Shown here: piece after piece, positions 2,804 to 15,492 of the stretch | Numbering within the stretch: the stretch's first letter is position 1 | Layout: every line of letters starts with the position of its first letter | Source: a virus | Strand: one strand, 5' to 3' | DNA: 64,000 nt | Virus record (IMG/VR): IMGVR_UViG_3300028706_000553 | The notes under the pieces: model-generated | Database searches by the model: none | Seen by the model: the letters and a program-made list of their open reading frames with translations, nothing else | Told to the model about the DNA's origin: nothing | Translations under genes and position numbers: made by a program

Positions 2804-3606
2804 TACATGTTTATTCAGATAGTTTTGGTGAAACACATGGTGCTGGTACTTGGCCTGCAAAGCTTGAATTTATTAGAGAAGAGGAAGTAAAAATTAACGG
2901 GTCTGGAGGGACCGGTCCAAATTGGAGCTTAAGAAAATTAATTAATGATTTGGAAACTTCAAAGATAAAAAATAAAGATAGTGTAATTGTTTTACTGTCC
3001 GATCAGAAGAGAATGGAATTTCCTTGGTTGGAAAATGATTGGTTAGCAGATGGTATTTTTTTATTAGCAGAAGATATTCCAGAAGAAATAGTAAAACACC
3101 TTAAAGGAGGAACACCAGAATTTGACAAATATAGATATAAGAAATATGAATATGAAATAAGAACAATTGCACAATCATTAGGTCCCATGTTTTTATATGA
3201 GAACGTCAAAAATATAACATTTTTACATTTACTTTCTCAACAGTTTAGTGAAATAAATTTTTTGGTATTTACTTGTTTTAGTCTCAATCATTTTACTTCA
3301 AGATATAAAAATTTTAATATTACATCTACAAAATTATTATATGATTTGGATTTTGAAGAATTAAATTCATCTAATTTTTATTATGTATCAACTCCGGTTT
3401 CATATATGGCCGGCACATATGATGGTGATGAAATGTTGAATAATCATATGACTGTAGAACAAAACGAAAAATTTGGTATCTTTTGTAATGACATATTAAA
3501 TAATAATACACCCGATACTAGCTGGTTTGCTTATAAGGCATATGATGATCCTTATGCAGAACATCAAGGATCAGAGCCGCCAGCACCACTTTTCATTTAC
3601 GATTGA
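2800..3606 (+). CDS. SGNH/GDSL hydrolase-like protein
   Basis: Likely start MIHVYSDSFG at 2800 (ORF track starts at 2740). Block I-like SDSF, G-rich GSGGTGP, late NHMT. Confidence 0.45.
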   Translation: MIHVYSDSFGETHGAGTWPAKLEFIREEEVKINGSGGTGPNWSLRKLINDLETSKIKNKDSVIVLLSDQKRMEFPWLENDWLADGIFLLAEDIPEEIVKHLKGGTPEFDKYRYKKYEYEIRTIAQSLGPMFLYENVKNITFLHLLSQQFSEINFLVFTCFSLNHFTSRYKNFNITSTKLLYDLDFEELNSSNFYYVSTPVSYMAGTYDGDEMLNNHMTVEQNEKFGIFCNDILNNNTPDTSWFAYKAYDDPYAEHQGSEPPAPLFIYD

Positions 3607-3607
3607 T

Positions 3608-4426
3608 ATGACAATACACATTTATGGTGATAGTTTTGGAGTAATTTGTAAACATGATAAAACATGGCCGGCTGAACTATCAAGATTAAAAAAAGAAGAA
3701 ATTGATGTTAAAGCAGAATCGGGTAGTGGACCTAATTTTTCTTTAGATTTATTAATTGCAGATTTAGAAAATAGTTCCATTAAAGATGATGATACAATAG
3801 TTATTCTGTTATCCGATCAGAAGAGAATGGAGTTTCCTTTTGTAAGGAATAATGAACATGTTACAGGTGTTTTTAGAATAGCTGAGGATAATAAAGATTG
3901 GAAACATCCATTTGAGCCAGATAATAAAGATGATCCTTGGCCTGGAGTACAGAATCAGTCCTACTTAAATGATTATAAAAAGGAAACAAAAATTATAGCA
4001 CAAACATTAGGGCCTATGTTTTTATATGAGAATGTTAAGAATATATCTTTTTTACATTTGTTATCTTTAAATTTTAAAAAGATAAGATTTGTGGTATTTA
4101 CTTGTTTCAGTTTAGATCATTATCTAGGAACTTATAAAAACTTCAATATAAATTCAACTGATTTTTTACACAAAATAAAATTTGAATCTTTAGATAGTGA
4201 AAATTTTGATTATGTAAAAATTCCTGTAGGACATATTGTAGGCCTTGATGATACTGGTATTCAATTAGATAATCACATGACACCAGATAAAAATTTAAAA
4301 TTTGGTAAATTAGTATATGATATAATAATGAAAAATGAGATTGATAGATCCTGGTTTAATACACATCCCTATGATGATCCTTTTGAATACCAGTATCCAT
4401 TAGAACCCATTTTCATATACGATTAA
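3608..4426 (+). CDS. SGNH/GDSL hydrolase-like protein, paralog of the preceding ORF
   Basis: Likely start MTIHIYGDSFG (GDSF motif). Shares VLLSDQKRMEFP, IAQxLGPMFLYENVKNI, VFTCFSL, NHMT and PxFIYD with the previous ORF. Confidence 0.5.
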   Translation: MTIHIYGDSFGVICKHDKTWPAELSRLKKEEIDVKAESGSGPNFSLDLLIADLENSSIKDDDTIVILLSDQKRMEFPFVRNNEHVTGVFRIAEDNKDWKHPFEPDNKDDPWPGVQNQSYLNDYKKETKIIAQTLGPMFLYENVKNISFLHLLSLNFKKIRFVVFTCFSLDHYLGTYKNFNINSTDFLHKIKFESLDSENFDYVKIPVGHIVGLDDTGIQLDNHMTPDKNLKFGKLVYDIIMKNEIDRSWFNTHPYDDPFEYQYPLEPIFIYD

Positions 4427-4440: not shown

Positions 4441-4710
4441 GGTTGTTGATATAATTGGATAGCTTTTTAGGACGTGGGTTCGATTCCCACCGCCTCCACC
4501 AGAGAGATATAACTTAGATGTTGTATTTCGCTGATGGGGGCGTAACGGTATTCGACTGAGAGTGAAGGGATTAAGGAGACCTAAGGGTGGTAACCTATAA
4601 CCAATAATCTAATCGCAGATAATACCGATTATTTTCCAGCACAAGTGGCACTCGCCGCTTAATCGCTGATGGGCTTATGATTGTGCCTGGAAACAGAAAC
4701 AATCAACCAC
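4441..4710 (+). ncRNA. ssrA: tmRNA, circularly permuted two-piece gene (acceptor piece first, coding piece second)
   Basis: 3' tRNA-like half GAC-GTGGG-TTCGATT-CCCAC-CGCCTCC-ACCA (4471-4501) precedes the 5' half GGGGGCG-TAACGGTATTCGAC (from 4536). The 7-bp acceptor stem has the G3.U70 alanine determinant. Tag ORF 4615-4662 encodes ADNTDYFPAQVALAA-stop. Outer ends are approximate. Confidence 0.9.
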
Positions 4711-4725
4711 ACATAGAAAGGAAAA

Positions 4726-5241
4726 ATGGCTGAATATAAAAATGAAGAACCCTGCGAATTTGTATACCGCGTTAAAGCAGTATCAAAAGTAGTAGATGGA
4801 GATACAATAGATTGTTGTTTCGATTTAGGATTTGATGTAATGTTTCATAGTCGGGTTCGATTATTGGGTATAGATACTCCGGAATCCAGAACAAGACATA
4901 AGAATGAAAAGGTGTATGGTTTACTTAGTAAAGACGCACTTAAATCATGGGTGCATTGGGCTGTTATGGATGATAGAGATGATATTGATATTGAAATTAG
5001 ATGTCCTGAAGCAGATAGTCGTGGAAAGTTCGGAAGAATTTTAGGCGAAGTTTGGGTAAATTGTAATGCAGAAGGAGAGCACGGTGGTTGGACTAACGTT
5101 AACAAATGGATGTGTGAGAACGGACACGCTGTTGGTTATTGGGGTCAAAATAAAGATGATGTTAAAGGTGAACATTGGGCAAATAGAGAATATCTTTCCG
5201 AACAAGGTAAAATGGCACTTCTTCAATGGGATGAAGATTAA
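4726..5241 (+). CDS. thermonuclease (SNase-like) family nuclease
   Basis: KVVDGDTID, RVRLLGIDTPE, KFGRILGEV and NKWMCENGHA motifs of staphylococcal nuclease-like proteins. Confidence 0.85.
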   Translation: MAEYKNEEPCEFVYRVKAVSKVVDGDTIDCCFDLGFDVMFHSRVRLLGIDTPESRTRHKNEKVYGLLSKDALKSWVHWAVMDDRDDIDIEIRCPEADSRGKFGRILGEVWVNCNAEGEHGGWTNVNKWMCENGHAVGYWGQNKDDVKGEHWANREYLSEQGKMALLQWDED

Positions 5242-11737: not shown

Positions 11738-14041
11738 CTACTGGGTGACCACCTTTTTCAATGAATCTTTTCGTGAACTAGTATCAAGGTCAGTCTGGAG
11801 GACGATGCCTTCGGTTTTGGTGGTGACTACTGAATTATCTACTACATTTACTGGTTGTCTATCTCTTTCTTGTCTTGCTAATTCCCTCTCTTCTTTTCTT
11901 TTTCTCTCCTCGGCCGCCACAAGTCTTTTATATGCTTCTGGATCATCTTTTTCCATTTTAGCCATTTGGTAATGTTTTGAATCTTTACCGAAAATTCCTT
12001 TGGCTGCCTTTTTCCCTAAAAATCCCATATCCATCATCAACCTCGCAATAAATTGGGGAATTCTTCGGACGAAGGCAAAGACTGGTTCTAGAACATGATC
12101 GTAAATTGCATCGGTTGCCATTGTAAATAATTTTTTGATACCAGTAAATAAAGAAAAGTTACCATCTTTATCTCTTAGATTTTTATCAATAAATGCTACT
12201 GCATTTTTAAAATCGAATTTTTTTAATATCCAAGCAACTGCTTCACCTAATAGGTTTGGTATAGCAAACAATACATCGTCGAATACAGACTCTATACCGG
12301 CCCCTATTGCGCCTGTAATACCACCTTCTTTATATCCATCTACAATATTACTTATTACATCAAACGCAGAAAAAAGGAACCCAATAGGAATGAATACCTT
12401 ACCAATAACTTTTGCGATCTTACCTACAAAACCTAAAATGTCTTTTAAGGGTTTGATCCAATCAGTTAAAGGAGCAATTATACCTGAAAACGTTTTTGCG
12501 GCTTTTGTAAGAATGCCGTCTTTAGGTCCGAATGCACCTTTGAATGAATCTCTAAAAGAATTAAAAGTTTTAATTGGATGAGCTAATGCTTCTGCATTTA
12601 AAAATCCAAGAGCACCAAAGTTAAGTACGTTTACTAATTTGAAAAACCCTTTAGTAATTTTTAACATAGTACCAAAGATATTATCAATGGCAGTTAAGAA
12701 TCCAGTCTTTACTTGCATCAACTTACTACCTTCAGCAAACATTGGCATCTTAAAGAATGCTCCAAACCTTGTACTAAATCCTGCTTTTGCTTTTACTATG
12801 CCTTCAGCAACATCATCACCTATATTGAAAATTTTAGTTTTCAATTTAGAAAACATACCTTGTTTTTTAATGACAAGGTCATCAACTTTTGCAGGATCTA
12901 ATCCTAACATTTTTATAATACTGGAGTTGAATTTTGTTTTAGCTAGTTTACCTGCATCTGCCGCTTCGTCACTTATTTCTAATATATTAGCGTGCTTCTT
13001 CAAGAACTTTATTTTAGCTGCGTCGGATAATCCTTCTGCATCAGCAGCAAAAGCCAACATCTTAGATTGGGATTTTAGAAACTTTAGTTTATCTTTTTGA
13101 ATACCGTCAGTATGGTCAGCCATCCATGCTAACATTTTAGATTGCTTTTTCAAAAAGCCGGCTTTATCAGCAGCGGACATATCTTCAGCTGTATTCATCC
13201 ACTTCAACATATTCGTCTGAGCATTGAAGAACTTCAATTTATTTGCATCTGTTAATTTTTCAGCATCAGTAGCCCATGAAGCTAGTCTACCTAGAGTTTT
13301 AGTAAAGTTGTTTTTTTGAGCGAGCGCAAATTTGTCTGTGTCTGGGCCAAATTTTAAAAACTTTCCTATATCATCTGCAAATCCAGCCTTTTGTTTAGCA
13401 AGTTCATTAGGAAATTTTTGTTCAAAACCAAAGTACTTTTTTAAATTAAACCACATACCACTTTTGGTTTTTCCTAAATCTTTAACATCTCCAGGAGGAA
13501 ATCCTAAGGCACCTTTGATTTTATCAAAAAAAGATGTCCTATGAATTTTCATATTATCAAGTAATTTTGTGAACTGATCGCCAGTAAAAAAAGCTGTTAT
13601 CGAATCTTTAAATAATGCTAATCCGGCTATAGCCGCACCGCCGAGTCCGGCAGCTAATCCACCCCAACTAAAATCTAAGCCACCTAAGGATGGTGCTCCA
13701 CCTCCTCCACCACCTTTATCTTTATCTTTAGCTAAACGAGCGGCTTCCATTGCTGCTTCTAATCGCTTTCGTTCAGCATCTTTAATAAAGTCAAGGTATT
13801 CAGCAAAGAGATCGGCAGTTCTAAATGTGTTAGCTTCGACTGATTGTAATAAATTATTACTCATATCGCCCATGCGAATTGAGTTAGACCAATATTGTGT
13901 CTGCGCATCAAATGAATCTTTCATTTGATTTACAAACATGCCGCTAGAAATAGCATCTGCTCCTAATTGTGAAGACACCTCATCTTGCCATTTTTTACGG
14001 GCAGCATGTTCTTTTGGATCTGTTTTTACTGTCTCAGCCAT
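11738..14041 (-). CDS. tail tape-measure / baseplate hub protein (gp29-like)
   Basis: 767 aa, helical Ala/Gly/Lys-rich with about 25-aa Phe/Trp-spaced repeats; follows gp26-gp51 on the same strand. Confidence 0.7.
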   Translation of the reverse strand: MAETVKTDPKEHAARKKWQDEVSSQLGADAISSGMFVNQMKDSFDAQTQYWSNSIRMGDMSNNLLQSVEANTFRTADLFAEYLDFIKDAERKRLEAAMEAARLAKDKDKGGGGGGAPSLGGLDFSWGGLAAGLGGAAIAGLALFKDSITAFFTGDQFTKLLDNMKIHRTSFFDKIKGALGFPPGDVKDLGKTKSGMWFNLKKYFGFEQKFPNELAKQKAGFADDIGKFLKFGPDTDKFALAQKNNFTKTLGRLASWATDAEKLTDANKLKFFNAQTNMLKWMNTAEDMSAADKAGFLKKQSKMLAWMADHTDGIQKDKLKFLKSQSKMLAFAADAEGLSDAAKIKFLKKHANILEISDEAADAGKLAKTKFNSSIIKMLGLDPAKVDDLVIKKQGMFSKLKTKIFNIGDDVAEGIVKAKAGFSTRFGAFFKMPMFAEGSKLMQVKTGFLTAIDNIFGTMLKITKGFFKLVNVLNFGALGFLNAEALAHPIKTFNSFRDSFKGAFGPKDGILTKAAKTFSGIIAPLTDWIKPLKDILGFVGKIAKVIGKVFIPIGFLFSAFDVISNIVDGYKEGGITGAIGAGIESVFDDVLFAIPNLLGEAVAWILKKFDFKNAVAFIDKNLRDKDGNFSLFTGIKKLFTMATDAIYDHVLEPVFAFVRRIPQFIARLMMDMGFLGKKAAKGIFGKDSKHYQMAKMEKDDPEAYKRLVAAEERKRKEERELARQERDRQPVNVVDNSVVTTKTEGIVLQTDLDTSSRKDSLKKVVTQ
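12680..13545 (-). repeat. about 10 degenerate 25-26-aa protein repeats in the tape-measure protein
   Basis: e.g. KLKFFNAQTNMLKWMNTAEDMSAAD / KAGFLKKQSKMLAWMADHTDGIQKD / KLKFLKSQSKMLAFAADAEGLSDAA / KIKFLKKHANILEISDEAADAGKLA. Confidence 0.75.
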
Positions 14042-14228
14042 GTCTTTGTCTTTCTTCTTCCATACGTTGATTTTCTTCTTCTATATGTTCAATTAAGAGG
14101 GCAATATAAAGGTCTCTTTCGTAACACATCATATTTTCTATCTCAGTCAAACTCCATTTATGATTCTGTATTAGAGAAAAAATGGTTTTATAATAGTTAA
14201 CTAAACTATTGTGACTGAGTATTAACCG
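14034..14228 (-). CDS. gp51: baseplate hub assembly chaperone gp51 (not in ORF track; no proper start codon, probably reached by -1 frameshift from gp26)
   Basis: Hand translation RLILSHNSLVNYYKTIFSLIQNHKWSLTEIENMMCYERDLYIALLIEHIEEENQR...HG-stop matches the gp51 pattern HKxSLTEIENMMxxERDxY. Confidence 0.85.
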   Translation of the reverse strand, partial: RLILSHNSLVNYYKTIFSLIQNHKWSLTEIENMMCYERDLYIALLIEHIEEENQRMEEERQRHG

Positions 14229-14944
14229 AAAAAAGCCTGTAGCCCCTCCAAGGCTACCTTGTCTTTTTTACCACATTTTTCGCACTGCCAAGATACTTCA
14301 TGTCTTAATTTAGGCATGGTATTAAAATAAGCAACAATCTTACCAAATTGATTTTGATTTAGACTGTAAATAAAATCTTCTAATTCTTGTTCGGTACTAT
14401 TTTTAATATCATGATATTCTTCTTTATCATATATTCCAGCAATACATGCTTTGGTAATTTGAAAGATAGAATCCATTTGAGATTCCTCTGCTGGTCTTGT
14501 CATTCTATCAATATCTGGATATCTTAATTGCACTGATATTTTATCATCAAGTTTAACCAGATCTTTATGGTCTTTATTAATATGTAATTTAATATCATTA
14601 CAATTAATTTCAACTTGTGTGGTGCCATTACACCCATCTTTTTCATCAGCTGTTGGGTGTCTCATCCCAACTGTTATCAATTCACCTACTGAGCGCGCTC
14701 GTAAATTTAAAAATAACATTTCAACATCAAATGCTGGTAGGTCATTTGTAACAAGATCCTCATCAAGGCAACAATTTTTAATAATTTGTTTAGTTGCAGT
14801 GACAATATCTTGCGTATCTCCACCTTCAAGTGCTGTTAATAAAATCTTTTCTTCTTTAACAAGAAAAGGTCTATATTTAACCGGCCTATCTACGCTATGT
14901 AATTTGATCGTATAGGTCGGATTATCTATTACTGGTAAACTCAT
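14222..14944 (-). CDS. gp26: baseplate hub assembly chaperone gp26
   Basis: MSLPVIDNPTY, KYRPFLVKEEKILL, FDVEMLFLNLRARSVGE, YFNTMPKL, CxxC and terminal LEGLQAFF. Confidence 0.9.
   Translation of the reverse strand: MSLPVIDNPTYTIKLHSVDRPVKYRPFLVKEEKILLTALEGGDTQDIVTATKQIIKNCCLDEDLVTNDLPAFDVEMLFLNLRARSVGELITVGMRHPTADEKDGCNGTTQVEINCNDIKLHINKDHKDLVKLDDKISVQLRYPDIDRMTRPAEESQMDSIFQITKACIAGIYDKEEYHDIKNSTEQELEDFIYSLNQNQFGKIVAYFNTMPKLRHEVSWQCEKCGKKDKVALEGLQAFFG
14228..14249 (-). promoter_or_regulatory. candidate -1 ribosomal frameshift signal (U UUU UUC with upstream internal SD)
   Basis: On the minus strand: GGAGGGG (14249-14243), 8 nt, then T TTT TTC (14234-14228) in the correct X XXY YYZ phase just before the gp26 stop. 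Confidence 0.6.
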
Positions 14945-14964: not shown

Positions 14965-15492
14965 TTATATCGTGGTCCATTTATGACATGCAAAGCTCAC
15001 ATTAAACTGACCAAGTGTGTTATTTGAATCCCATCCTAACGTGGTGGCATCAACGTTTATTGGGAATGTATCCATATATTTAGTACCTGTTGTTGCTTCT
15101 TCTTCACTAATCGATTCATTGGATTGATCAAATGCCAACACAGTTATATCGCCTTTATAATCATCAAAATATTTCATATTTCCGGTTTCAGTTGGAACAC
15201 AAAAATCCATCCATTTAATAAAAAAGTTTCTGGCTTCCCATGCATTAGTAATGATAAATTGTAATTGATATTCAGTGTAAGTATTTTCTCTTGCCATTTT
15301 ACGAACAGGGCCATAATGTTTCAAATCTGAAGTAGCTATTGTTCTCGCACCTAAGGGAGCCTGATTACAAAAGAAAGTAAGTCCTGCAGGCAAATGAACC
15401 TTACTCGGTGGTTTTATTTTCGCCACGAATCTATTCATTGGGGCTATACCACCCGCCTCATCCAATTTAGCTAAAAAATCTGTCGTATTCAT
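14965..15492 (-). CDS. gp54: tail-tube-fold baseplate protein (gp54-like tube initiator)
   Basis: GGIAPMNRF, YGPVRKMA, FIKWMD, YFDDYKGDI and FPINV patterns of the gp19/gp54 family. Confidence 0.7.
   Translation of the reverse strand: MNTTDFLAKLDEAGGIAPMNRFVAKIKPPSKVHLPAGLTFFCNQAPLGARTIATSDLKHYGPVRKMARENTYTEYQLQFIITNAWEARNFFIKWMDFCVPTETGNMKYFDDYKGDITVLAFDQSNESISEEEATTGTKYMDTFPINVDATTLGWDSNNTLGQFNVSFACHKWTTI

Follow-up and report, generated by a model that had tools for sequence, protein, structure and literature searches.

The DNA considered here is a stretch of 64,000 nucleotides from the IMG/VR virus record IMGVR_UViG_3300028706_000553, referred to below as the window and numbered from its first letter. 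On its minus strand lies a gene whose product resembles gp26 of the T4-type phages, and the end of that gene is overlapped by a second open reading frame (ORF), in the -1 frame, which resembles the C-terminal end of T4 gp51 and is called the extension below. This single gene of the gp26/gp51 family very probably directs a programmed -1 ribosomal frameshift, by tandem slippage aided by the anti-Shine-Dalgarno sequence of the ribosome, whereby the T4-like marine myophage that carries it would produce mostly gp26 and, as a minority, a longer gp26-51 protein. A fusion of this kind had been put forward in an original prediction made from the sequence of the window, and it is supported by the invariant phase and site of the shift, by constraint on synonymous positions, by coding constraint in the extension, by the architecture of T4-type gp51 and by the presence of a single PF12322 gene: the complete genome (167,436 bp, CheckV 100%) holds one such gene and one copy of the extension.

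According to the proposed mechanism, most ribosomes would remain in the zero frame and terminate at the TAA found one codon past a slippery heptamer, giving a gp26 of 240 residues. Some of the ribosomes, when their P and A sites hold UUU and UUC (14233-14228), would slip back by one base onto U_UUU_UU, the two Phe-tRNAs slipping in tandem, and would then read 64 codons in the -1 frame to give a gp26-51 of 303 residues; pairing of the 16S anti-Shine-Dalgarno sequence with a GGAGG inside the gene, 8–10 nucleotides upstream, probably aids the slippage. By analogy with gpG and gpGT of phage lambda and with gp26 and gp51 of T4, the two proteins would serve the tape measure protein and the hub as chaperones, without being part of the virion, and an additional binding module would be contributed by the long form, which is the rarer. 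The occurrence of slippage, its efficiency and the binding partners of the two forms are matters that we infer.

The junction in the window and the architecture of gp51

The gp26-like ORF ends in the residues LEGLQAFFG, its final codons being gcT TTT TTC ggt TAA. The T4_baseplate profile PF12322 matches the protein with 196.2 bits (cut-off 24.5; E-value 7.4e-58) from position 2 to position 218 of its 219 positions, and the family phrog_150, 'baseplate hub', also takes in the protein at full length. The open -1 frame spans 14267 to 14034, and the first ATG, GTG or TTG in it is a TTG at 14150, which is codon 28 past the heptamer, the first ATG being the one that begins the residues MMCYE. Read from the heptamer onward, the extension has a match at 8.9e-26 to phrog_634, the gp51 family ('baseplate hub assembly catalyst'); a weaker match to phrog_150, the profile of the gp26 family, falls on the C-terminal end of that profile. 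The trans-frame product predicted from this layout has 303 residues and an N-terminus common to both forms. The end of the extension (stop codon TGA, 14036-14034) overlaps the start (ATG, 14041-14039) of an ORF of 767 residues, the probable tape measure gene, in the sequence ATGGCTGA, which suggests coupled translation. What the original prediction had stated about the sequence, namely the end of the gp26 ORF, the phase of the heptamer, the -1 frame devoid of early start codons, an internal GGAGGGG, an inverted repeat and the overlap with the next gene, proved correct throughout. A second TTTTTTC occurs inside the extension (14176-14182, minus strand), where it reads ACC ATT TTT TCT in the -1 frame; this copy is out of slippery phase, and the alignment shows no conservation of it.

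The relation between the two reading frames becomes apparent from gp51 of the T4-type phages. In this protein (250 residues in Tequatrovirus AR1) an entire PF12322 domain (1.9e-54) precedes a C-terminal segment that is homologous to the extension in the window, the extension aligning with residues 200–244, and the trans-frame product of 303 residues aligns to T4-type gp51 without a break across the junction. T4-type gp51 is thus a paralogue of gp26 to which the extension is joined, so that T4 makes a short and a long form from two paralogous genes. T4-type gp26, for its part, ends in EFFELL; its Phe-Phe pair is coded by ttc ttt, which is non-slippery, and no -1 ORF follows it. Given this supply from two genes, the slippery site is missing in T4 exactly where it is not needed.

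Constraint on the junction and alternative explanations

The junction was compared with those of three annotated cyanophages and 80 IMG/VR loci, whose gp26 proteins are 36–80% identical to that of the window, and other columns of the same genes, which have the same phylogeny, served as the control. All 83 related loci that contain the region have their gp51-like similarity in the -1 frame, with its start at the heptamer. The heptamer T_TTT_TTY is present without exception (84/84 loci; 78/78 distinct junctions), and the distance from heptamer to stop is exactly one codon in 75 of the 78 junctions. The U-rich Phe-Phe site and the -1 phase, whose conservation in relatives had been proposed as a check, are therefore invariant among the distinct junctions. 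The codon that precedes Phe-Phe can encode Ser, Asp, Asn, Ala or Gly, with T as its third base in 78/78, and the first Phe codon is TTT in every one of the 78, whereas TTC is also used at all seven other conserved Phe columns (by 4–30 sequences each); these two codons are the only columns of the gene in which the third position is completely fixed. TTC makes up 81% at the second Phe codon, compared with 5–41% at the other Phe columns. A similar bias was found upstream, where the Glu codon that forms the Shine-Dalgarno-like (SD-like) GGAGG is GAG in 59 of 72 sequences (82%), as against 12–27% at seven other conserved Glu columns; the third base of the Leu codon preceding it is G in 45/78, and an SD-like core of at least 4 nucleotides occurs in 65 of the 78 junctions. 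Because these synonymous positions are fixed or biased relative to controls from the same genes, selection is acting on the nucleotide sequence of both the heptamer and the SD-like motif, beyond the protein that they encode. The GGAGGGG is a probable stimulator through anti-Shine-Dalgarno pairing, and the GAG bias supports the role that the original prediction had assigned to it.

The order of heptamer, one codon, stop and -1 ORF is also found in members of the Straboviridae outside the Tevenvirinae (phiAS5, nt-1, K571 and EniLVp02), in Menderavirus YB07 and in Ralstonia phage RSP15. The -1 frame of phiAS5 and EniLVp02 becomes open only at the heptamer (...TGA TTT TTT...), and the shift is thereby pinned to that site. 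Kuttervirus moki and Vibrio phage D528 carry a gp51-like -1 ORF without the canonical heptamer, with ATG or GTG codons present, and the long form may be made differently in them or not at all. In these two phages (locus L087, 2807-3314, for Salmonella phage moki; locus L090, about 2223-2440, for D528) the site reads ATT TTC or CTT TTC rather than T_TTT_TTY; the gp51-like ORF carries no annotation in moki and a partial one in D528.

The original prediction had also proposed a hairpin downstream of the heptamer (AATAGTT/AACTATT), which is present in the window but is not conserved. RNAalifold found no consensus RNA structure downstream of the heptamer in 77 aligned junctions; the pairs of the hairpin are formed in 48.9% of cells, which equals the shuffled and slid controls, with no excess covariation; and the hairpin region of the window folds no better than its shuffles (z -0.36). 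The hairpin was rejected as a stimulator on these three grounds. No stable stem-loop lies 5–9 nucleotides past the heptamer, as would be expected from dnaX, the candidate hairpin being placed 17 nucleotides downstream.

The extension is conserved as a peptide from its first residues (H8 in 65/78 junctions, L11 in 75/78, N18 in 70/78 and F19 in 77/78), and its substitution rates are coding-like, being highest at the third codon position, lower at the first and lowest at the second (0.56, 0.43 and 0.29). No ATG, GTG or TTG occurs within the first 10 extension codons in 35 of the 78 junctions, or within the first 20 in 21 of them, the window being included in both groups; L11, F19, Q23 and H25 are invariant in those 21 junctions. 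These data bear directly on the rival explanation that survives best, although it is unlikely, namely that the extension is translated alone, by termination-reinitiation or coupling near the gp26 stop, and that no fusion protein is made. Independent initiation would agree with the annotation of the extension as a separate ORF in GenBank records, with the ATG found at extension codon 5–6 in 33/78, with the coupling-type overlaps TAATG and TGATG of several Straboviridae, and with the ATG or GTG codons that the heptamer-less moki and D528 do have. In the window, however, it would require a non-canonical ATA or CTC, or else the TTG at 14150, and the 28 start-less codons of the window are conserved as protein, besides which the other junctions devoid of an early start would have to be accounted for. 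The position at which many cyanophages have Met is occupied by Leu as frequently (Leu 35, Met 33), so that a hydrophobic residue, and not a conserved start, seems to be maintained there. Independent initiation also leaves unexplained the invariant wobble T, the invariant TTT, the preference for TTC and the GAG bias, as well as the joining of a gp26 domain and the extension in T4 gp51.

Transcriptional slippage, whereby RNA polymerase would add one U on the run of six to seven T and so give rise to the same fusion protein, is very unlikely. The T run is indeed invariant, and an inserted U would likewise put the extension in frame, but the run is of only six T in 63 of the 78 junctions, and the preference for C as the seventh base (81% against 5–41%) is the opposite of what selection for a longer run would produce; the conserved SD-like motif 8–10 nucleotides upstream, moreover, acts on ribosomes and not on the polymerase. 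The notion that there is no recoding at all, and that the pattern comes either from a conserved Phe-Phe pair together with AT-rich use of codons or from a sequencing error that splits one gene at a homopolymer, can draw on the retention of Phe-Phe as protein even in T4-type gp26 and on the frequency of TTTTTTC in the window, but it is extremely unlikely, given that the control columns of the same genes have no such fixation, that T4-type gp26 codes the same Phe-Phe as ttc ttt, that 78 independent assemblies show the same split, the stop following after one codon, and that no naturally fused ORF of about 300 residues exists among the best 120 homologues, the full-length ones measuring 233–249 residues.

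Several points nevertheless weigh against the programmed frameshift, or against parts of the scheme built on it. The heptamer TTTTTTC is common in the AT-rich window (50 copies, about 39 expected), so that its significance comes from the comparison among relatives and not from the window alone. In the 33 of 78 relatives that have an ATG five codons past the slip site, in many cases within TAATG or TGATG, coupled re-initiation could also yield the extension alone. The SD-like motif is missing in 13/78 junctions and, as there is no conserved downstream RNA structure, it is the sole candidate stimulator. The fusion protein is known here as a prediction from sequence. Finally, the identity of the downstream gene as a tape measure gene comes from its position and from a language-model lead, not from homology.

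Neighbouring genes and positions of the features

The gp26 gene and its -1 extension are preceded in the window by a gene of the tail tube family and followed by the probable tape measure gene (Table 1). A tube-family gene directly upstream of gp26, as in the window, is also found in phiAS5, nt-1, EniLVp02, K571 and S-SRM01. The product of the 767-residue ORF can reasonably be taken for a tape measure protein on the basis of its position, its size and its nearest named ESM-Atlas clusters, which are those of PF25671 T4_Tape_measure (0.94 and 0.93). BLASTP gave no significant match between this ORF and T4-type gp29, no Pfam family was assigned to it, and among the PHROG families there was only a weak match to 'tail associated lysin'. 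The protein has a run of glycines (GGGGGG) near residue 110 and, at about residues 260–350, several repeats of the type K(L/I)KFLK.(Q/H)(S/A).(M/I)L..(A/S)D(A/E).

Table 1. Positions in the window of the gp26/gp51-family gene, its junction elements and the adjoining genes.
Feature	Position	Strand	Remarks
Tail-tube-family gene, directly upstream of gp26	14965..15492	minus	phrog_45 'tail tube', 1.8e-26
gp26-like gene, zero-frame product of 240 residues	14944..14222	minus	PF12322, full length
SD-like GGAGGGG inside the coding sequence (Leu-Glu-Gly)	14249-14243	minus	8 nucleotides 5' of the heptamer; core GGAGG 10 nucleotides upstream
Slippery heptamer T_TTT_TTC in X_XXY_YYZ phase, predicted -1 shift site	14234-14228	minus	
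Zero-frame stop TAA, one codon past the heptamer	14222..14224	minus	
-1 frame extension, gp51-like, 64 codons and TGA (14036-14034)	14034..14228	minus	phrog_634 match
AT-rich 7-bp inverted repeat AATAGTT/AACTATT	14210-14192	minus	17 nucleotides 3' of the heptamer; functional role unsupported
ORF of 767 residues, probable tape measure	11738..14041	minus	Position, size, overlap, ESM-Atlas clusters

Elsewhere in the window, at 4441-4662 on the plus strand and between the ORFs 3527-4426 and 4726-5241, lies a permuted transfer-messenger RNA (tmRNA) gene of the two-piece type (Rfam RF04321, 99.7 bits, E-value 3e-18). It is also called by ARAGORN, with the tag peptide ADNTDYFPAQVALAA.

Comparison with the tail assembly chaperones of T4, lambda and HK97 and with dnaX

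The gp26-like protein of the window could be divided into an N-terminal domain resembling a tail assembly chaperone (TAC), at about residues 1–96, and a remainder, covering the middle and the C-terminus, in which a CxxC motif occurs. With a model of the isolated N-terminal domain (pLDDT 86.5), Foldseek ranked 3fgx, 5ir0 and 2ob9 first and 3klu eighth; these first three have a TM-score of about 0.5 and probabilities of 0.6–0.8, the probability dropping below 0.16 after them, and the E-values are not significant (0.2–0.8). The best fold matches are, at modest scores, HK97 gp13 (2ob9), which is the frameshifting chaperone of that phage, and two other TAC structures. In a passage of PMC9603447 that cites Pell et al. 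(2013), 2ob9, 3klu (YqbN) and 3fgx (Rbstp2171) are named as structures of phage tail assembly chaperones. Other searches with gp26 gave no support of this kind: phmmer against the PDB found no hit, hhalign detected no relation between the gp26 profile and HK97 gp13 (probability 0.1), a search of NCBIfam found nothing, and Foldseek with the full-length gp26 model found nothing meaningful, TACs having surfaced only in the VIA wide search and with the isolated domain. No TAC family appeared when 70 gp26 homologues were scanned against Pfam for weak matches; the same scan gave weak matches to PF22091 DUF6941 in 18/70 (best E-value 0.0015) and to PF04510 DUF577 in 14/70. Because two programs agree on the ranking and the scores are modest, a TAC fold of the modelled N-terminal domain is likely, not proven.

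For T4, a review of 2010 names gp26 and gp51 as baseplate hub assembly chaperones and nothing more, and gp51 as required, though absent from the particle (PMC3004832, Leiman et al. 2010). T4 gp26 (208 residues) and gp51 (249–250 residues) belong to the family PF12322, as does gp26 of the window, and in both phages a short form is accompanied, or predicted to be accompanied, by one that is longer by a C-terminal extension of about 50–64 residues, the extension of T4 being homologous to the -1 ORF of the window. The genetic organization differs, in the sense that the T4-type phages have two diverged paralogues, which lie on opposite strands, do not adjoin gene 29 and have no slippery site, whereas in the window one gene, directly upstream of the probable tape measure gene, would serve for both forms. 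In Tequatrovirus AR1 genes 26 and 51 are divergently transcribed. The original prediction had remarked that gp26 and gp51 of T4 are treated as separate genes; in T4 itself they are indeed separate, divergently transcribed paralogues that have no slippery site, so that the claim of a frameshift stands for this phage and for many, but not all, T4-related lineages.

It is reasonably likely that gp26 and gp51 are the long-missing TAC pair of the T4-like phages, with a fold distantly related to that of lambda and HK97, that the U_UUU_UUY frameshift is the usual and probably the ancestral state in Kyanoviridae, many Straboviridae and other T4-related groups, that T4 and its close kin switched to gene duplication, and that the enigmatic 'catalytic' gp51 of T4 is the counterpart of lambda gpGT. 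T4-type phages have so far been an exception to the chaperone frameshift, and the roles of gp26 and gp51 have been unclear for decades. If this view is correct, a recoding event that is missing from the annotation, together with a mis-annotated short 'gp51' ORF, is present in thousands of T4-like genomes, among them those of the abundant marine cyanophages, gp26 and gp51 become testable as tape-measure chaperones, and T4 is a natural case of a frameshift-encoded pair that was replaced by two paralogous genes.

The likeness to lambda gpG/gpGT and to HK97 gp13 lies in the order of the genes (a tube or major tail gene, then the chaperone with its -1 extension, then the tape measure), in a heptamer of the type X_XXY_YYZ placed close to where the short ORF ends, and in an N-terminus common to the short and long forms. 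The lambda G/GT-like chaperone arrangement that had been predicted upstream of a tape measure gene is supported by gene order and by a likely, TAC-like fold at modest scores, the tape measure gene being a probable one. There are, though, differences: no sequence similarity to the lambda and HK97 proteins could be detected, gp26 has about double their length and carries further domains behind the TAC-like one, and the extension in the window is short (64 residues) and unrelated in sequence to lambda T. The annotation differs as well, since the HK97 frameshift is entered in GenBank as a joined coding sequence, whereas none of 12 inspected T4-related records (0/12) is so annotated, in agreement with the claim that gene callers miss it. 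A -1 frameshift in the chaperone gene is reportedly found in most long-tailed phages. The chaperone frameshift upstream of a tape measure gene is of a well-known kind, and the present one is an unannotated case in a major phage group; full-text searches, which are thin on subscription journals, returned no report of a frameshift in gp26/gp51.

With respect to stimulation, the closest parallel is dnaX of E. coli, the -1 frameshift of which is said to be stimulated by an internal Shine-Dalgarno sequence. In both cases an SD-like sequence lies about 10 nucleotides 5' of a homopolymeric heptamer, and in the phage genes it is under synonymous-site selection. The gp26/gp51 junction would offer a clean model of an SD-stimulated -1 shift that proceeds without downstream structure: in dnaX there is also a strong stem-loop downstream, and a truncated protein results from the shift, whereas the window has no conserved structure at this place and its predicted shift extends the protein.

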